In this document: positions 8,174 through 63,589 of the stretch, one piece after another
How positions within the stretch are numbered: position 1 is the first letter of the stretch
Layout: each line of letters opens with the position of its first letter
NCBI GenBank assembly: GCA_963816865.1
Contig: CAWFMU010000021.1
Coordinates: 24,450-88,449, forward strand
Length of the DNA: 64,000 nt
DNA from: Terriglobia bacterium
GTDB lineage: Bacteria; Acidobacteriota; Terriglobia; Terriglobales; Acidobacteriaceae
Reading direction: 5' to 3'
Made by a program: the position numbers and the translations under genes
The notes under the pieces: generated by a model
Seen by the model: the letters and a program-made list of their open reading frames with translations, nothing else
Databases searched by the model: none
What the model was told of the DNA's origin: nothing

Positions 8174-8595
8174 TGTAGGAGGGCTCCTTCCTCACTCATC
8201 TCGCGAAACTCAGTTTCTTTGATTCTAAAATCTGTCAACGCGGTTAGCCGGGGAGGGCTTCTCTCGCGTTCGCATTGTAACAAGAGCACGGATGGTGCCA
8301 ACAGTGGAAATGGTGACACTGGCTTGTAACATGCTGATGATACGTAACTTAAGAGGTTTTCGGTGCCGGGGACGGGTGCGGCCGGCCAGCAACTTTCGTG
8401 CAAAGGCGTTACGAACTGAGGAAATTTTATATGGTGCAGTTTAATGCACCGTGGCACGGCAACAAGCGGCCCCGGATTTGCACGGATCTGATTGACCGGA
8501 CCAAGTACCGGAATTATTCGTGGAGATTCCTGGCACGCTACACCTTGAGCGCGGCCATGGTCCACATTGCTAATCATCTAAAATGGGTAGTAGGA

Positions 8596-10539
8596 ATGGA
8601 TCTTCAGGCCAAAATCCGCAGCTTGCCAACCTCCGCCGGCGTGTATCTCTACAAGAACGCCGAAGGAGAGGTTATCTACGTCGGCAAGGCCAACAATCTG
8701 CGCAGCCGCGTGTCTTCGTACTTCCGCGAAGGACGATGGGAGGATGCCAAGACCGATTCCCTGGTACGCGAGGCGGTGGATGTTGATTACATCGTCGTGG
8801 CCAACAACAAAGAGGCGTTGGCGCTTGAGAACCACCTGATCAAACAGAAGAAACCGCGCTTCAACATTCTACTGCGCGACGACAAGACTTATCCATACGT
8901 GAAGCTCACCTTGGGCGAGCGTTTTCCCCGCGTATACGTCACGCGGCGACTGCGTAAGGATGGCAGCGCGTACTACGGCCCGTATTTCCCGGCAAACCTG
9001 GCGTATCGCATCGTGGACCTGATCCACCGGCACTTCATGGTCCCCTCCTGCAAGGTTGATCTCACGCGATATCACCCGCGTCCGTGCCTGCAGTACTACA
9101 TCAAACGTTGTCAGGGACCTTGTGTGGAAGGATTGACCACACCCGAGATCTATCAGGAGGCGGTGCACGACGTAAAAATGTTTCTCGAGGGTCGTCCCAC
9201 CGACTTGTTGCGCTCGCTGCGCCGGCGCATGGGACAGACCGCCGAAGCCGAAGAATACGAACGAGCAGCGAAATATCGCGACCTGATTTCCACGGTGGAG
9301 CAGTTGCAGGAGAAACAGCGCATTGCCGCGGTCGAAGGCGACGACGCTGACGTCTTCGGCTACCACTATGAAAACGGAATGCTCGCGGTAAACCTGTTCC
9401 ACATGCGCGGCGGCAGAGTGCTCGACCGTCGAGAGTTCTTCTGGGAAGATCTGCCGGAAATCGCCACCGACCACGCAGGGGCGGGCGCCCCCGCCCGCCC
9501 AGCCGAGCAAAGCTCGACAGTCCAGCCGGAAGACTTGACGGGCGAGGACGCAAATCGCTTGACCGAATCGTTCCATCCCGGCGAATTCTTCTCTGCTTTC
9601 CTAAACCAGCTTTACATCGGCCAGCCTTACGTTCCGCGGAACATCTACGTTCCGGTTGAGTTTGAGGATCGAGAAGTGCTCGAAGATCTGCTCTCCGAGC
9701 AAGTGGCGGGCGAGGGCGCCCGTCCCACTCGAGTTCATATCCTTGTCCCCCAGCGCGGGGACAAACGAGGGCTTCTTGATCTGGCTGGCAACAATGCCAA
9801 GCAGTCCTACGATCAACGCTTTCGAGTGATGAAGCCGAACGCGAAGGCGATCCAGGAAGCGCTACAGGACGCGCTCGGGCTGCCGGAACGGCCGCATCGC
9901 ATCGAGTGTTTCGACATTTCTCACATCCAGGGAGCCGAGACCGTGGCTTCCATGGTGGTGTGGGAAGACGGCCAGATGAAGAAGTCGGATTACCGCAAAT
10001 TCATCATCCGCGACGTGATTGGTGTGGACGATTTTGCCTCCATGCGAGAGGTGGTCACGCGCCGTTACAAGCGTATTCAGGAGGAACAAAAGAAAATGCC
10101 CAGCCTGGTGCTGATTGACGGCGGCCTGGGCCAGTTGCATGCGGCCGCCGAGGCGCTGGAAGCGCTGGAGATCATCAACCAGCCGCTGGCGGCGATCGCC
10201 AAGCGCGAGGAAATTATCTACGTTTCGGGCCAGGAGAACGAACCGGTCGCGCTCGATCATCACTCGCCGGTGCTGCATCTGGTGCAACTGATCCGCGACG
10301 AAGCTCACAGGTTTGCCGTCACCTTCCACCGCAAACGGCGCCAGATGCGCGACCGTTCCACGGAGCTGCGGGAGATCCCAGGCGTCGGCGAGAGTACGAC
10401 CCGGCGACTGCTGCAACATTTTGGCAGCGTGCAGGCTATCAAACAGGCAGATTCGGCGGCGCTTTCCTCGGTGGTTACGCGTTCCCAGGCGGAGGCAATT
10501 CTGGATCACTTCAGGAAGCAGGATGCGTCAGTACAGTAG
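8596..10539 (+). CDS. uvrC: excinuclease ABC subunit C
   Basis: ATG 8596. GIY-YIG motif (GVYLYKNAEGEVIYVGKANNLRSRVSSYF), a UVR domain (YERAAKYRDLISTV), the endonuclease domain and a C-terminal HhH (IPGVGESTTRRLLQHFGS). Intact. Confidence 0.95.
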   Translation: MDLQAKIRSLPTSAGVYLYKNAEGEVIYVGKANNLRSRVSSYFREGRWEDAKTDSLVREAVDVDYIVVANNKEALALENHLIKQKKPRFNILLRDDKTYPYVKLTLGERFPRVYVTRRLRKDGSAYYGPYFPANLAYRIVDLIHRHFMVPSCKVDLTRYHPRPCLQYYIKRCQGPCVEGLTTPEIYQEAVHDVKMFLEGRPTDLLRSLRRRMGQTAEAEEYERAAKYRDLISTVEQLQEKQRIAAVEGDDADVFGYHYENGMLAVNLFHMRGGRVLDRREFFWEDLPEIATDHAGAGAPARPAEQSSTVQPEDLTGEDANRLTESFHPGEFFSAFLNQLYIGQPYVPRNIYVPVEFEDREVLEDLLSEQVAGEGARPTRVHILVPQRGDKRGLLDLAGNNAKQSYDQRFRVMKPNAKAIQEALQDALGLPERPHRIECFDISHIQGAETVASMVVWEDGQMKKSDYRKFIIRDVIGVDDFASMREVVTRRYKRIQEEQKKMPSLVLIDGGLGQLHAAAEALEALEIINQPLAAIAKREEIIYVSGQENEPVALDHHSPVLHLVQLIRDEAHRFAVTFHRKRRQMRDRSTELREIPGVGESTTRRLLQHFGSVQAIKQADSAALSSVVTRSQAEAILDHFRKQDASVQ

Positions 10540-10707
10540 TAAGCACACGAACATGTAACCGCCGAGATCGCACAGCACACCGATACAATTCCTCCGCGGC
10601 TACTCGGCGTTCTCGGCGGTGGAATTCCTTCTTGGATACTCCCTATGAGATAGCCGATCAGGTTGGCCTATACTGCATAGCCATACGCAACGTCAGGAGG
10701 CTCCACG

Positions 10708-11160
10708 ATGAAAGTGAGCGCTTGCTTGATGATCGTGGTCTGCACGATGAGTTTGTCCGTGCGGGCCCAAGACGATTCCGAATCCGCCGTGCGATCCAAA
10801 ATCGTTGCGCTGGAGAAGGCCTGGAACCAGGCCTACAAGGCCGGGGACGTTCGCGCCCTGGATTCGATCCTCGACAACGAGATTGTGCTGATCAACGATG
10901 ACGGCTCGGTCCAGAGCAAGGCCGAGTTTCTGTCAGATGTAAAAGCCACCCGAAACAATTCTCAGGAACAGCAAGTCTCGCCGGAATCCATGAGTGTGCA
11001 TGTGTTCGGCAACACTGCCATCTCAACCGGAGTATTTCGAGCCAAGGGAGTCGAAGGCGGCAAGAGTTACGTTCGGCGCGAGCGCTTCGTGGATACCTGG
11101 TTGTACAAGGACCGCAAGTGGGTCTGCGTCGCCAGCAACGCAACTCCGGTCTTGCACTGA
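10708..11160 (+). CDS. secreted SnoaL-like / DUF4440 (NTF2-fold) protein
   Basis: AGGAGG RBS and a signal peptide (MKVSACLMIVVCTMSLSVRAQ). It has an NTF2-like pattern: IVALEKAWNQAYKAGDVRALDSILDNEIVLI...RFVDTWLYKDRKWVCVAS. Confidence 0.65.
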   Translation: MKVSACLMIVVCTMSLSVRAQDDSESAVRSKIVALEKAWNQAYKAGDVRALDSILDNEIVLINDDGSVQSKAEFLSDVKATRNNSQEQQVSPESMSVHVFGNTAISTGVFRAKGVEGGKSYVRRERFVDTWLYKDRKWVCVASNATPVLH

Positions 11161-52099: not shown

Positions 52100-52336
52100 T
52101 TAATCCATTCCTACGATGCAGCCGTGACCTTGCCAGCCCACCTGAATGACTTTGCCATCCTCGACCAGCACCGGAACGCTGCGCTGCCCTGGGGCCAGAT
52201 CGCTCATGCGATGACGCGCGATCGGGTCCGCCTCGACGTCGTACTCGACGAACTCCGATCCCTTCCACTCCAGCCACTCCCGCATATCCTGCGTATAGGG
52301 ACAGCGGGTCGCGCCAAAGAGCTCAAGCTTGGCCAT
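52100..52336 (-). CDS. glutaredoxin-fold small protein with monothiol CPYT site
   Basis: 78 aa: KLELFGATRCPYTQDMREWL...VPVLVEDGKVIQVGWQGHGCIVG. It overlaps the SIS gene stop, and its own stop lies 2 nt upstream of the hypF start. Confidence 0.7.
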   Translation of the reverse strand: MAKLELFGATRCPYTQDMREWLEWKGSEFVEYDVEADPIARHRMSDLAPGQRSVPVLVEDGKVIQVGWQGHGCIVGMD

Positions 52337-53507
52337 GGCTCAATACCTCCAGGGTTTCGCGAATGATGTGATAGATCGAAGCTTGCACTTCTTGAATACG
52401 CGGAATGTAGTCGCACTGCACAACGACAGGAAAATCCGCCAACCCGCGCCGCTTGATCTCCCCGCCGTCGTACCCCAGCAATGCGACGGTCAAAAGGTTG
52501 CGTTTGCGGGCTTCTTCGAGCGCCATGATGATATTTCGCGATCCGCCGCTGGTAGAAATTGCGACGGCAATATCTTCGGGACGCGCCTGCGCGATGAGCT
52601 GGCGAAGAAAAACCACGTCGGTACCGACATCGTTAGCGATCGCACTGATATTTGCCGGTTCTAGGGCCAACGATACGGCAGGAATAGGACGATAGCCCGC
52701 CGGTGGCATCACGCAGTCGAGCGCCCAATCGTTACAGTCCGTGGCCGAACCGCCATTGCCGAAGAGAATCAGCTTTCCTCCCCGCGCCAGCCGTTCGTGG
52801 ATTGCGATAGCGGTCTTGCTGATCGGTTCGGCCTGTTCTCGCGCCACCTGGGATCGCAGCGCAGAGTCGTCTCGTACTTTCATCTGGATTGAGGCCGCGA
52901 CTTCCGCCAATAAATCACCGGTGTTCTGTTTTTCCTGGCCCAGAAATGGATACAGGAATCCGGCTGCGCCAACATCGTGGCCCAGTTCGCTATGTTCGAG
53001 AAAGACGTGAACACTCTCCCACAGCGTGTGGTAGAGGATCTCAATCATTTCCTGGTGAATGAACGGGTCTTGAGTAAAAGCTTCGACTGCATAGGAGCAA
53101 TCCACTCCAGGCAGCGCAAAAGTAAGCGCATTACGGGCATGGGCAAACTTCAGGGCAGAGCGAACTTCGTCGTCGCCTTGCGGAGGACCGAAGCCCATCA
53201 CGATGTCTTCGGGACGAAGAATGGTTTCCAGCCAGGGCCGGAACATGATGGAGAGATCGAGTGCAGGCAGTGCTCGCTTGCCCACGATGACGGGATGAAC
53301 AAATTCTACGGAAACGTGTTGCGCATCGGTGGCATAGGGCCCACGCCCAAAGGCAAGCAGGCGTCCGCCCGCAAGAAAGCGCTCGGCCATCGAGCGGCAA
53401 GCCTCAGCCAGGCGGGGCGCCTCTTGCGAGAAGAAGCTTTCCACCAGTTGATTACGAACCAGCAACCACTCCCCGACTTGAGTTTCCAGTCCACAGACTG
53501 TCGCCAT
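52323..53507 (-). CDS. tandem SIS-domain (GmhA-like) protein
   Basis: Intact 394 aa. The C-half is canonical GmhA-like (LILFGNGGSATDCNDWA...AISTSGGSRNII...LLTVALLGYDGG). The N-half is degenerate (LLAFGRGPYATDAQHVSVEFVHP). Confidence 0.7.
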   Translation of the reverse strand: MATVCGLETQVGEWLLVRNQLVESFFSQEAPRLAEACRSMAERFLAGGRLLAFGRGPYATDAQHVSVEFVHPVIVGKRALPALDLSIMFRPWLETILRPEDIVMGFGPPQGDDEVRSALKFAHARNALTFALPGVDCSYAVEAFTQDPFIHQEMIEILYHTLWESVHVFLEHSELGHDVGAAGFLYPFLGQEKQNTGDLLAEVAASIQMKVRDDSALRSQVAREQAEPISKTAIAIHERLARGGKLILFGNGGSATDCNDWALDCVMPPAGYRPIPAVSLALEPANISAIANDVGTDVVFLRQLIAQARPEDIAVAISTSGGSRNIIMALEEARKRNLLTVALLGYDGGEIKRRGLADFPVVVQCDYIPRIQEVQASIYHIIRETLEVLSHGQA

Positions 53508-56057: not shown

Positions 56058-56630
56058 TCACACTTTCTTTCGAGCCAGGATGTTGAACGTGAATTTCAGC
56101 TCGTCTTTCACTTTCAACGCACCCCCCGCGACGGAAGCGAGTTTCAGATCATAGTCCGTTTGCAGCAGCGAGAACGTGCCAAAAGCCCGCAACGAATCGG
56201 CAGTCAGCGTCACTCTTGCCGGTACGGCCTGAGGACGGGTTACGCCGTGCATGGTCAAATCGCCATTGAGCGTAACCGTATACTGCCCTTCTCCGGCCTT
56301 GGTGGCGGTCATGCTCGAACACTCGTAAACGATCTCGGGATAGGATGAAGTTTCCAGGATCTCCTGTTGCATCATGCGCTCGATCTCGCTCTTGTCCTTG
56401 TCGGAAATATCATCCTTCACCGACAACGACGCCGCCTGGATGACCACTTTGAGCGAAGCCTGCTCCAGATTGTCGGTGTTCGCTTCGGCCTCCGCCTTGA
56501 AGTCGCGGATGACTATGGTCGGACTGTGACCGAACGCCGACAGCATTCCCCCGGAGAATACCTGCACCGTGAACTGGCTCGCCCTTATGTCCGCGACGTA
56601 TTGAACCCTGGTTTCCGTGGTTGGTCCCAT
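56058..56630 (-). CDS. YceI-like (polyisoprenoid/lipid-binding lipocalin-fold) protein with no signal peptide
   Basis: GGAGAAAA RBS. 190 aa with the YceI hallmarks FTVQVFSGGMLSAFGHSPTI..., GDLTMHGVTRPQAVPARV and KVKDELKFTFNI. The N-terminus MGPTTETRVQYV is not a leader. Confidence 0.7.
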   Translation of the reverse strand: MGPTTETRVQYVADIRASQFTVQVFSGGMLSAFGHSPTIVIRDFKAEAEANTDNLEQASLKVVIQAASLSVKDDISDKDKSEIERMMQQEILETSSYPEIVYECSSMTATKAGEGQYTVTLNGDLTMHGVTRPQAVPARVTLTADSLRAFGTFSLLQTDYDLKLASVAGGALKVKDELKFTFNILARKKV

Positions 56631-56643
56631 TTTTCTCCGGGCC

Positions 56644-56856
56644 TTACATATTCCGCAATTTTAGGTAGCGATCCACGTCAGGCAAAGCCGCCTGCATCAG
56701 ATTGCCGACCCCAAGTTGTCCCAGGTAGCGTCTCACCATGGGGTTGGAGAGGATCAGTCCTGTACCAAACATAATCAAGGCTGCTCCTCCGAGCATGTAC
56801 AACGTGTCCTTGTCAGTTCCGGAGTGGTTCGCGCTTTCAGACAATTCCATGGCCAC
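56644..56856 (-). CDS. 70-aa single-helix membrane mini-protein
   Basis: GTG 56856 lies 6 nt after GAGGAG. There is one hydrophobic helix (LYMLGGAALIMFGTGLILS) followed by an amphipathic tail. It is tightly packed between the protease and YceI genes. Confidence 0.5.
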   Translation of the reverse strand: MAMELSESANHSGTDKDTLYMLGGAALIMFGTGLILSNPMVRRYLGQLGVGNLMQAALPDVDRYLKLRNM

Positions 56857-56868
56857 GGCAGGCTCCTC

Positions 56869-57714
56869 TCACTTTACGTCGTTGATTGTGGAACTACCTT
56901 CATCCCCGCTCAATATCTTCCCGACCAACGCCTCGACTAATCTCACCGCTTCGTCCACCGCGATTTCTATCGGCTCACTCAATCCCATCTGGCCCTCTTC
57001 CGGACCGAGCGTGCCGGGTTCGCATCCGACCAACAGTACTCGTTTCAACGGACCACCCATGGATTGAGCCAGGCGCAGCACGTTCAGCGGATTCATGCTG
57101 TGAGCCTCCACCGCGCCCTCTTCCGGTCCGCCCAGATTCTCCAGGTCCGGCTCAATCACATACAGCGTGCCCGCCGGCTCGCCCCGCGGACAGGCATCAA
57201 CCAGAATGGTGGTGTCATATCCATCCAGCAACGCGTAAGCCAGGTCATAGCCCCGGATGCCGAAGTCAGTCACGCGAACACCCGCTGGCAACTCTCGGCC
57301 CGAAAGGCGCCGCGCGACCTCTACTCCGAAGGCATCGTCCCCAAGAAAAATGTTCCCGATTCCAGCGACCAGGATCCGCGGCTTTGCGGACTGGCTGACT
57401 CCGCCCTCAAACTCTTCGCCCAGAGGTTCGACTTCTTCCGCATCGAAGAAGAAGCGGTGTCCCGGTTGCCGCATCAGGCCGATATCGCGGCCCGGATCGT
57501 CATCCACAACGACACATACGTGAACCTTGCCCTCGTAATCTTGCTCAATCCCCTCAATGACGGCGGTTTTCCCCGCCAGCGCAATATCCATGATGTCGCC
57601 GCGCGGCTTCGGCCGCAGCCGCACGCGACTTCCCTGCTTGACAGTGGTACCGTCAATACACAAGTCGTCTACCGGCTTCTTATCTTCGAGGAGCTGCCAC
57701 TCCCATTCGTTCAT
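56869..57714 (-). CDS. [NiFe]-hydrogenase maturation endopeptidase (HupD/HyaD-like) fused to an N-terminal ~115-aa domain of unknown function
   Basis: The C-terminal 165 aa match the protease: ILVAGIGNIFLGDDAFGVEVARRL...ILVDA...HSMNP. The N-terminal part (MNEWEWQLLEDKKPVDDLCIDGTTVKQGSRVRLRP...PGHRFFFDAEEVEPL) is an extra domain. ATGA overlap upstream. Confidence 0.8.
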   Translation of the reverse strand: MNEWEWQLLEDKKPVDDLCIDGTTVKQGSRVRLRPKPRGDIMDIALAGKTAVIEGIEQDYEGKVHVCVVVDDDPGRDIGLMRQPGHRFFFDAEEVEPLGEEFEGGVSQSAKPRILVAGIGNIFLGDDAFGVEVARRLSGRELPAGVRVTDFGIRGYDLAYALLDGYDTTILVDACPRGEPAGTLYVIEPDLENLGGPEEGAVEAHSMNPLNVLRLAQSMGGPLKRVLLVGCEPGTLGPEEGQMGLSEPIEIAVDEAVRLVEALVGKILSGDEGSSTINDVK

Positions 57715-58715: not shown

Positions 58716-59361
58716 CGCGTCACTTCTGCTTCCGCCGGAAGCATTTTCTCCAGCACCTGCTCCCAGGTGGGAATCCCGTTATCAACCTTGTATTGATACA
58801 ACCGCTCGAACACATCGCGCCGCAAACACAGCCAGGCGCTGTTCGGGTAGTAGATGTCCATCATTTCGTTCCAGGCCTTTACCGGCAGGCGAAAGCGAGC
58901 CTCTTTGTCCCAGGGGATGGGCGCGACCTGCAACGCTCCATCGCCATCGGCGTAGAAAACTGTTCCGCTGAAGAGAAAATTCAAAGGCACGTCGCCATCG
59001 GCTAGGCCATGAAAATATTTCGTTGACGCGACGTTGAAATCGAATGTGCATGGCACGGGAAGATCAACCACAATGCTGTCCTGAAACGCGGGAGCTACCA
59101 CGCTGGCGTGGGTCCAGAGCATGTTCTTCAGGGTCTGGCCCCAGCGCTCCGGTTCGCCAAAAAGATCACGCATCCTGGCTTTGGTCCTCGCCGCTGTATT
59201 GCCGCCGCGTCACTTCCAACTGGATCTGGCAACGCAAAGCGACAGAGTGCACCACTTCATTCGGGGCGTTGTTGGTAATTGCGGAGCTTGAATAGCAGCG
59301 TAGGAGCCGCCGCGAAGCGCTGCGCTTCCGCCTTCTCGATCTTGAAACTCAGGTCAGGCAC
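58712..59361 (-). CDS. conserved hydrogenase-cluster protein (DUF6084-like by recollection; frame-disrupted as sequenced)
   Basis: GTG 59361 (VPDLSFKIEKAEAQRFAAAPTLLFKLR). The reading moves +1 twice (about 59270 and about 59175) into ORF 58712-59173 (DLFGEPERWGQTL...VPCTFDFNVASTKYF...FLFSGTVFY). Confidence 0.6.
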
Positions 59362-60607: not shown

Positions 60608-60677
60608 GTCTTTCTAAGAAACCGCGAGGAGTGAAGGCCACAAGCGTAACCCTCACTCCTCGAAATATTCTGCTCGA

Positions 60678-62522: not shown

Positions 62523-63589
62523 TTAATAAGATCGCGGGTGGTAACCAGTCGTCAGCTCCGCGCGCGGGTGCCGCCACTGGGGTTCCTTGTTTACTGTGTT
62601 CTGAGTGATCGAGCGCAAGGCCCGTATCGCGCGACCGTACACCCCGATGCTGGCAGTTGAAACCCGCGCTCCCGGCGGCTCGTCCATGAAGGGCATGAAC
62701 TTGTCAGGAAAGCCGGGCATGGTGCATCCAATACAGATGCCGCCCACGTTGGGGCACCCGCCGATGCCGGCCATCCATCCCCGCTTGGGGACATTGCAAT
62801 TAACCACCGGCCCCCAGCATCCCAGTTTCACGATGCACTTGGGAGAGCCATATACCTCCGCGAAATCACCTTGTTCGTAGTAACCCGCACGATCACAACC
62901 GTCATGCACCGTCTGGCCAAACAACCACGTGGGGCGCAGCTGATCGTCCAAAGGAATCATCGGAGCCAGGCCCGCTACTTGATAGAGAAGGTAGAGCACA
63001 GTCTCCATGAAATTGTCCGGCTGAACCGGACATCCCGGAACATTCACGATCGGCAACCCCGCGCCGGAGCGCCAATCCCAGCCCAGGTAGTCGGCCAGGC
63101 CCATGGCGCCCGTGGGATTTCCTTCCATGGCGTGAATGCCGCCGTAAGTGGCGCAGGTTCCGATGGCGATCACCGCCAATGCCTTGGGCGCCAGCCGGTC
63201 AATCCACTCGTTCGTGGTAATCGGCTGCCCGGTCTTGGGATCGGTTCCCAGCGCCGCCCAGTAGCCTTCCTTCTTGATCGTCTCGTTGGGAATCGAACCC
63301 TCGACCACCAGAACAAACGGATCAAGCTTGCCTTCCCACGCGCGATAGAAAAACTTCATGAAGTCGTCGCCGTTTTCGTAGGCCAGCACGGGATTGTGCA
63401 GGTGAACTTTAGGCAAGGCCGGGAATCGCGCCCAAGCAAAACATCTTCGACACTGGGTTGGGTTGCTGCGGTAATTGAAACCGAATCTCCGTCACAGCCG
63501 AGGCCGGCCGTGATCCAGACTATGTGTACCTCTTTAACAGCCGGCGCTTTTTGCGTACTGCGACCGTAAGGAACCGTCTCTGCTGCCAT
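62523..63589 (-). CDS. hhyS: [NiFe]-hydrogenase small subunit, group 1h, no Tat leader (frame-disrupted as sequenced)
   Basis: ATG 63589 after GAGGAG. The N-terminus is MAAETVPYGRSTQKAPAVKEVHIVWITAGLGCDGDS (ORF 63356-63589). The body is in ORF 62523-63416 (ATYGGIHAMEGNPTGA, NVPGCPVQPDN, CPNVGGICIGCTMPGFPD). There is a net +2 shift near 63415-63445. Confidence 0.85.

Follow-up and report, generated by a model that had tools for sequence, protein, structure and literature searches.

The window analysed here, a stretch of 64,000 nucleotides (nt) from contig CAWFMU010000021.1 of a Terriglobia bacterium (Acidobacteriota), carries on its minus strand two small genes between a hydrogenase maturation protease gene and hypC. 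The first encodes a 70-amino-acid (aa) mini-protein with one hydrophobic helix and the second a 190-aa YceI-like protein without a leader, and gene content places both within a group 1h [NiFe]-hydrogenase (Hhy) operon. An original prediction, made from the letters of the window, had put two small open reading frames (ORFs) at this position and proposed that they form a module delivering quinone to the hydrogenase or anchoring it at the membrane. The ORFs are indeed there, with the peptides GDLTMHGVTRPQAVPARV and KVKDELKFTFNI. As set out below, the two genes make up a lineage-specific accessory pair conserved in acidobacterial Hhy operons. In minus-strand order, the locus reads:

63589-62523, minus strand: hhyS, hydrogenase small subunit, without a twin-arginine translocation (Tat) signal
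62474-60678, minus strand: hhyL, [NiFe]-hydrogenase large subunit, 84-99% identical to the HhyL of 80 genome loci (PF00374 matched on orthologues)
60607-60065, minus strand: NifU-like putative Fe-S protein of the HhyE type (PF01106)
about 60021-59357, minus strand: DUF5947 protein, split by a frameshift
about 59361-58712, minus strand: DUF6084 protein, with two frameshifts
58715-57711, minus strand: 334-aa protein without a Pfam match
57714-56869, minus strand: HycI/HupD-type maturation protease, upstream neighbour of the pair (PF01750 and TIGR00072 on residues 113-265), with an N-terminal extension of ~110 aa
56871-56857, minus strand: junction of the protease and mini-protein genes (TGA stop at 56871-56869; AGGAG at 56867-56863, 6 nt upstream of GTG)
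56856-56644, minus strand: gene for the 70-aa mini-protein, GTG start (68 aa if translation begins at the in-frame ATG at 56850)
56643-56631, minus strand: 13 nt between the mini-protein and YceI genes (Shine-Dalgarno GGAG at 56638-56635, 4 nt ahead of ATG, as GGAG-AAAA-ATG)
56630-56058, minus strand: gene for the 190-aa YceI-like protein, ATG start
56053-55718, minus strand: hypC, downstream neighbour of the pair (PF01455 and TIGR00074)

Downstream of hypC follow, in order, hypD, hypE, a gene for a double-SIS-domain protein, one for a glutaredoxin-like protein, hypF, hypA and hypB. Spacing around the pair is tight, with 12 nt from the protease stop to the mini-protein start, 13 nt from the mini-protein stop to the YceI ATG and 4 nt from the YceI stop to the hypC ATG, both small genes have a Shine-Dalgarno sequence, and no terminator-like site was found on this strand from the protease gene through to hypC, all of which agrees with the earlier description of strong ribosome-binding sites, gaps of 4-13 nt and an operonic arrangement. 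Judged by this layout, the mini-protein and YceI genes are probably co-transcribed accessory genes of an acidobacterial group 1h operon. A promoter scan returned one weak sigma-70-like match within the mini-protein gene (56685-56658), which was dismissed because the total count of 5 was lower than the 6.1 expected from shuffling.

The gene content expected of a group 1h locus is complete, comprising hhyS and hhyL, the NifU-like, DUF5947 and DUF6084 genes, the 334-aa protein, HycI and a Tat-less small subunit; the N-terminus of HhyS, as read from its sequence, has no twin-arginine (RR) motif, as the original prediction had held. This content, together with 84-85% HhyL identity to loci of isolates and metagenome-assembled genomes (MAGs) sharing the gene set (Tunturiibacter, Paraburkholderia, Burkholderia and Granulicella sp.), argues for assignment of the window locus to group 1h. 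The layout is that of published acidobacterial group 1h/5 hydrogenase loci, whose figures show the extra genes without labels, as ‘other genes’ or ‘hypothetical proteins’ (PMC5900883).

Relative to intact orthologues, the operon contains at least five frameshifts, in hhyS, DUF5947, DUF6084 (two) and hypE (at 63430, 59619, 59280, 59175-59251 and 54067); near 63430, for example, tblastn with the intact HhyS of another locus (L001 in the survey described below) switches from frame -1 to frame -3. The reading frames of hhyL, the mini-protein, YceI, hypC, hypD and hypF are unbroken. Long-read consensus errors are the likeliest source of these interruptions; if they are real, the operon would be decaying in this genome (pseudogenisation), with the focal pair intact. 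The presence of so many frameshifts in one operon might suggest that the two small ORFs are themselves chance frames or annotation artefacts of a frameshift-rich assembly. That explanation has next to no probability and is rejected, because both ORFs are intact, pass the gathering threshold of a Pfam profile, have hundreds of homologues and bear the mark of purifying selection.

The 190-aa protein begins MGPTTETRVQYV and has a hydrophilic N-terminus. Over residues 36-184 it matches Pfam PF04264 (E 5.9e-18; 66.1 bits against a gathering cut-off of 23.7), whereas with the E. coli-type YceI equivalog of NCBIfam, NF002994, it scores 30.9 bits, below the cut-off of 232; on these profile scores it is a member of the YceI family and not an E. 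coli-type orthologue. Sequence similarity to proteins of solved structure is low, at 15-19% identity, and a profile built from 41 homologues matches solved YceI structures weakly (E about 5e-5). The AlphaFold2 model is nevertheless a beta-barrel (pLDDT, the per-residue confidence score, 83; pTM, the predicted template-modelling score, 0.79), and its best 20 Foldseek matches in the Protein Data Bank are all YceI-family structures (E 1.6e-12 to 4e-6; template-modelling (TM) score 0.60-0.80). Leading among these are BcnA (5ixh), TT1927b (1wub), PA0423 (7bwl) and E. coli YceI (1y0g), with E from 1e-12 to 1e-10 and TM 0.67-0.80, and further matches include HP1286, the polyisoprenoid-binding domain of S. 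degradans and C. jejuni YceI. Profile, model and structural matches thus bear out the YceI fold that had been proposed, and domain and barrel fold are those of the known family (TT1927b, E. coli YceI, BcnA, PA0423 and N. meningitidis GNA1030).

The protein differs from exported YceI proteins in its N-terminus. Its ORF is already the longest possible from any start codon in frame and its homologues are 189-205 aa long, which leaves no space for a signal peptide; the closest exported relatives, in contrast, have leaders or lipoboxes, and the absence of a leader claimed at the outset is upheld. We accordingly predict a soluble, cytoplasmic, YceI-type lipocalin barrel. More than 1100 YceI homologues were collected, and the 150 nearest representatives of 50%-identity clusters fall into two classes: a leaderless class of 180-200 aa with the motif G/A-H-[N/S/D]-P, and an exported class of 210-255 aa (with a few fusions of ~600 aa) that has a hydrophobic leader or lipobox and the motif G/A-H-[D/N]-H. 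The clade of the window protein reads FGHSP, with H35 and P37 invariant across 68 hydrogenase-linked sequences, so that FGH-x-P stands in place of the H-x-H of the sister clade. By comparison of these classes, loss of the leader in the hydrogenase-linked proteins is a derived trait. The window protein has one Cys, two conserved His and no cluster-binding motif. Among the exported relatives, four (P0420, P0489, P0497 and P0510; 582-626 aa) have a signal peptide and an N-terminal region of ~430 aa without a Pfam match fused to the YceI domain.

The mini-protein consists of an acidic N-terminal tail of 18 aa, a Gly-rich transmembrane helix (about residues 19-37) with the hydrophobic core LYMLGGAALIMFGTGLILS, and two basic helices, the last ending LPDVDRYLKLRNM immediately before the stop; AlphaFold2 places helices at residues 3-36, 39-48 and 50-69. 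The C-terminal motif is PDxxRYLKLRxM, and the middle helix, NPMVRRYL (NPxVRRYLGQ), echoes the core of this terminal motif, LPDVDRYL, when the two are read side by side. With net charges of about -3 on the N-terminal and about +3 on the C-terminal flank of the transmembrane segment, the positive-inside rule suggests an N-out/C-in orientation, in which both C-terminal helices would face the cytoplasm. The 543 homologues recovered are nearly all 68-70 aa long, with a mean column identity of 81%. Differences between the mini-protein gene and 23 orthologues number 516, 315 and 893 at codon positions 1, 2 and 3, respectively, roughly one in two changed codons is synonymous, and the excess at third positions indicates that the gene is under purifying selection.

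A match to Pfam PF21833 (DUF6893; 29.8 bits against a gathering cut-off of 24.6) is confined to the last 15 residues of the mini-protein, 56-70, aligned with profile positions 18-32. Typical DUF6893 proteins are 33-46 aa long, with the helix directly before the motif, an architecture that the 70-aa protein does not share; on the differences in length and helices it is a long-form variant or paralogue of DUF6893. It has in common with the short forms the C-terminal motif past the hydrophobic helix and a place in the locus immediately after the group 1h protease gene, but differs from them in its acidic 18-aa tail, in its extra NPxVRRYLGQ helix and in tracking YceI.

The short forms match the full Pfam profile (positions 1-32) above threshold, and past their single hydrophobic helix carry the family motif PDxxRY[LIM][KR][LI]RxM-stop. 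Some, from Paraburkholderia, Edaphobacter and Tunturiibacter, bear the NCBI name ‘DUF6893 family small protein’; NCBIfam has no model matching either short or long forms, and a literature search retrieved no paper mentioning DUF6893 and no described function. Six of seven look-ups seeded with DUF6893 proteins ended within hhy loci: in four (L085, L087, L091 and L092) the gene lies directly past the hydrogenase protease gene, in two (L090 and L093) it lies beside an orphan paralogue of HhyS, and in one (L086) the context is unrelated. Most short genes have the protease gene on one side and hypA/hypB or hypF on the other. DUF6893 therefore appears, from sequence and context, to be a family of small single-pass membrane proteins tied strongly, though not exclusively, to group 1h loci in at least four phyla. 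One Chloroflexia locus (L070, 17531-17869) has two consecutive short DUF6893 genes, of 54 and 35 aa, past hypB.

The orphan HhyS paralogue is a further recurrent feature of these loci. It is ~75% identical to HhyS, comes without a large subunit, lies ~4 kb upstream of hhyS in 50 of 83 loci (examples are L004 1-2663, L005 4884-6230, L090 3683-7108 and L093 3626-7108; in the present genome this region lies beyond the end of the window), and has genes for a PAS histidine kinase and for a GerE/LuxR response regulator after it, often with a short DUF6893 gene adjoining. Such a set of genes could be a redox- or H2-sensing module.

Conservation of the pair was surveyed in 80 loci, one per GTDB species, found with the window HhyL, so that the survey was seeded mostly from HhyL relatives of at least 84% identity; it left out Actinobacteria, C. 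necator and Verrucomicrobia. Genes were scored by tblastn, by hidden Markov models (HMMs) built from homologues and by a search for the C-terminal motif, and 73 of the 80 loci had enough sequence past the protease gene to be scored. Counts are per species and not phylogenetically independent.

Long-form mini-protein and YceI: 50/73 loci (Terriglobia and Bryobacterales)
Long form without YceI: 1/73 (L054)
Short DUF6893 and YceI: 2/73 (Blastocatellia)
YceI alone: 1/73 (L062)
Short DUF6893 (33-46 aa) without YceI: 16/73 (a Granulicella/Tunturiibacter-type clade of Terriglobia, all 4 Burkholderiaceae, both Chloroflexia and a Schlesneria MAG of the Planctomycetota)
Neither gene: 3/73 (L013, L034 and L056; Terriglobia)

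The pair thus keeps a fixed position past the protease gene in 50 of 73 loci, over a range of YceI identity from 35% to 97%, and further loci reached from YceI add to these; conservation next to group 1h hydrogenases, on which the original prediction had staked itself beforehand, is what was found. YceI occurs without the long form in L062, L071 and L084. Two tandem leaderless YceI paralogues lie between the mini-protein gene and hypC in 10 loci (L008, L010, L011, L016, L017, L019, L020, L027, L029 and L030), and a fragment of a second YceI copy was seen in L015 and L018. A Pyrinomonas-type contig (L085) carries, in order, HycI, a short DUF6893 protein (46 aa), a long form (66 aa) and a leaderless YceI (199 aa); since both forms are present there, the long form is a paralogue of the short one, and it adjoins YceI in Blastocatellia too.

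The pair lies between the maturation protease gene and hypC, and most short DUF6893 genes are likewise flanked by the protease gene and by hyp genes (hypA/hypB or hypF). Such positions would suit a helper in hydrogenase biogenesis rather than in electron transfer, which might bind a hydrophobic stretch or an intermediate of the cofactor, or position the precursor at the membrane during the action of the protease and Hyp proteins. Four operons speak against this. In L048, L049, L058 and L061 the order is hhyS-hhyL-hhyE-(DUF5947)-(DUF6084)-mini-protein-YceI, where the operon ends; the protease and hyp genes are not nearby, yet the pair is kept, which argues that it travels with the structural genes. 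The same ‘structural operon’ argument was earlier applied to HhyE (PMC6883350). Short DUF6893 genes also occur beside the orphan HhyS paralogue, far from hyp genes. We know, moreover, of no step in the established Hyp pathway of [NiFe] maturation that needs a lipid-binding barrel. A role in maturation is on balance improbable.

YceI proteins have been linked repeatedly to stress responses and to promiscuous capture of hydrophobic ligands (PMC5350466, PMC8472277), and the hydrogenase-linked form might likewise be a co-expressed passenger, a cytoplasmic protein sequestering hydrophobic or oxidised lipids in starvation or persistence, at times of hhy induction, with no physical or electron-transfer link to the enzyme, DUF6893 having a separate role. 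That YceI is dispensable in many Hhy lineages, evolves fast and gives no specific signal of co-evolution with the mini-protein would fit such a passenger. Its genomic context fits less well. Synteny is strict in more than 50 species, down to 35% identity, and the gene is kept in the minimal structural operons described above. All leaderless HxP-type YceI genes for which the genomic context was available are linked to hhy or hyp genes (~70 genes in ~60 loci, 6 of these not seeded with HhyL). Loci reached from YceI rather than HhyL comprise L001-L004 and, from a distant leaderless representative, L088 and L089, the only two loci returned by a single-protein metagenome scan with that representative and both hydrogenase-linked. 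We judge the passenger explanation to be rather unlikely.

Whether the two genes act together is a separate matter. YceI is present in 50 of 51 loci with the long form and in 3 of 22 without it (Fisher p 2e-13, with no correction for phylogeny). Several observations weigh against a joint role with the hydrogenase. This co-occurrence statistic is confounded by common ancestry; in a mirror-tree analysis, the partial correlation between mini-protein and YceI is 0.44, compared with 0.5-0.8 for other accessory genes, in a comparison in which the controls evolve much more slowly and YceI paralogues may blur the signal; and no gene of the operon evolves faster than YceI (mean distance 0.50). YceI is also absent from the sampled loci of Burkholderiaceae, Chloroflexia and Planctomycetota and from the Granulicella/Tunturiibacter-type clade of Terriglobia, and since so many lineages lack it, Hhy enzymes evidently function without it. 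Members of the family, finally, bind hydrophobic molecules other than quinones, for example antibiotics and erucamide (PMC5350466).

These data could be read as two independent genes, with DUF6893, short and long, a general membrane partner or regulator of HhyS-type small subunits, and YceI an unrelated acidobacterial insertion adjoining it by historical accident. In 16 loci from four phyla a short DUF6893 gene is present and YceI is not, and short forms also adjoin orphan HhyS paralogues; L054 has the long form and lacks YceI; L062, L071 and L084 have YceI and lack the long form; and the mirror-tree analysis gave no signal specific to the pair. Set against this are the adjacency of long form and YceI in 50 loci and in the Pyrinomonas-type locus, which also holds a short form, and their joint retention in reduced operons. 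Independence of the two genes seems to us doubtful. What does follow from the distribution is that YceI, restricted among the sampled loci to Acidobacteriota and missing in some Terriglobia, is not something that group 1h enzymes need in general; outside Acidobacteriota most Hhy loci have short DUF6893 only, which would make YceI an auxiliary add-on and not a core requirement. The module envisaged in the original prediction survives in part: the pair is conserved, but the mini-protein is no orphan, and the family of the supposed tether, DUF6893, is broader than the pair and occurs without YceI.

Several other features of the operon and its relatives were noted. Between hypE and hypF, on the minus strand, lie the genes for a 394-aa protein with two SIS/GmhA-like domains (52323-53507) and a 78-aa glutaredoxin-like protein (52100-52336); both kinds of gene are known, functionally unexplained companions of group 1h loci (PMC5900883). 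The strongest terminator-like site of the operon separates hhyL from the NifU-like gene: in the 70 nt between them, a hairpin (60625-60662, minus strand) with a 17-bp stem (CGAGGAGTGAGGGTTAC...CCTTCACTCCTCG) precedes a T-rich tract. It might serve as an attenuator or stabilise the mRNA, setting the ratio of structural to accessory expression. The N-terminal ~110 aa of the protease (57380-57714; ...VHVCVVVDDDPGRDIGLMRQPGHRFFF...) correspond elsewhere to a separate ORF of 100-120 aa just upstream of a protease gene of normal length (L085 8164-8466, L087 8097-8447 and L092 6085-6447) and are fused to the protease in Terriglobia. Signs of hhy mobility were seen in L091, with integrase and primase-polymerase genes directly past the locus (8378-10815), and in L075, which lies on a 756-kb plasmid of Tunturiibacter lichenicola.

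Hhy is membrane-associated, has neither a cytochrome b nor a Tat signal nor a transmembrane segment, and feeds the aerobic respiratory chain; its route to that chain and to the quinone pool is unresolved, as the original prediction had said, and HhyE has been proposed as its electron acceptor (PMC6883350). Among YceI (BCN) proteins, most crystal structures contain octaprenyl-like ligands; ubiquinone-8 is bound by GNA1030, and BcnA has a high affinity for menaquinone (PMC5350466). The known YceI proteins are encoded beside cytochrome b561 or in stress regulons, the window protein in a hydrogenase operon. In E. coli, yceI lies next to the cytochrome b561 gene (yceJ-yceI). The high-affinity hydrogenase Huc has a dedicated menaquinone conduit, HucM (PMC10017518), also as originally stated.

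The reading we favour, by analogy with these systems, assigns complementary parts to the two proteins. The mini-protein would be inserted N-out/C-in, with its basic helices and PDxxRYLKLRxM tail on the cytoplasmic face, beside the Tat-less hydrogenase, and the YceI barrel would hold the polyprenyl tail of menaquinone or of another isoprenoid lipid; together they would keep soluble HhySL(E) at the membrane and/or offer quinone to its electron exit. That a menaquinone- or lipid-holding barrel acts in this way with the long-form mini-protein, tethering Hhy or presenting quinone to it, is a tentative proposal, to which we give appreciably less than an even chance; a function of the pair in quinone delivery or anchoring is in general terms plausible. 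A broader version, in which DUF6893 would be the general membrane anchor of group 1h enzymes and the acidobacterial long form would dock a YceI that takes menaquinone from the bilayer and passes it to the HhyS/HhyE electron exit, is less likely again.

The proposed function would be analogous to that of HucM in the group 2a enzyme Huc of M. smegmatis, a dedicated non-catalytic subunit that supplies menaquinone to a soluble, Tat-less, high-affinity hydrogenase and links it to the membrane (PMC10017518), without structural relationship: HucM is an amphipathic coiled-coil tetramer with a hydrophobic tube, whereas the window pair comprises a monomer-sized beta-barrel and a three-helix single-pass protein, and there is no homology. 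HhyE and HucE are likewise accessory genes of the structural operon, of enzymes without cytochrome b, with a proposed link to the respiratory chain (PMC6883350); HhyE, however, is present in every group 1h locus and, by genetic evidence, needed in M. smegmatis, whereas YceI is lineage-restricted. For a soluble cytoplasmic protein holding polyprenyl-quinone species outside the bilayer, UbiJ of the cytosolic Ubi metabolon may serve as a precedent (PMC9499169), its fold (SCP2) and biosynthetic role being different and the analogy conceptual only. The literature search retrieved no paper joining YceI or ‘polyisoprenoid-binding protein’ to group 1h hydrogenases, and no structure of an Hhy complex with extra subunits. 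The YceI and DUF6893 protein families themselves were already known; new here are, as predicted from sequence and context, the leaderless YceI clade in hydrogenase operons, the long-form DUF6893 paralogue coupled to YceI, and DUF6893 as a group 1h-associated family.

Group 1h hydrogenases rank among the main biological sinks of atmospheric H2, and in temperate soils Acidobacteriota are abundant among the organisms that carry them (PMC8027828). For the link between Hhy and the membrane or quinone pool there are now two candidates, the small membrane family DUF6893 and an acidobacterial cytoplasmic lipocalin. Should either protein turn out to be a subunit, it would have to be included in models of Hhy architecture and in work to express or purify these enzymes; and if an anchor acting together with YceI is the correct reading, this would represent a second, structurally independent answer to the problem that Huc solves with HucM.

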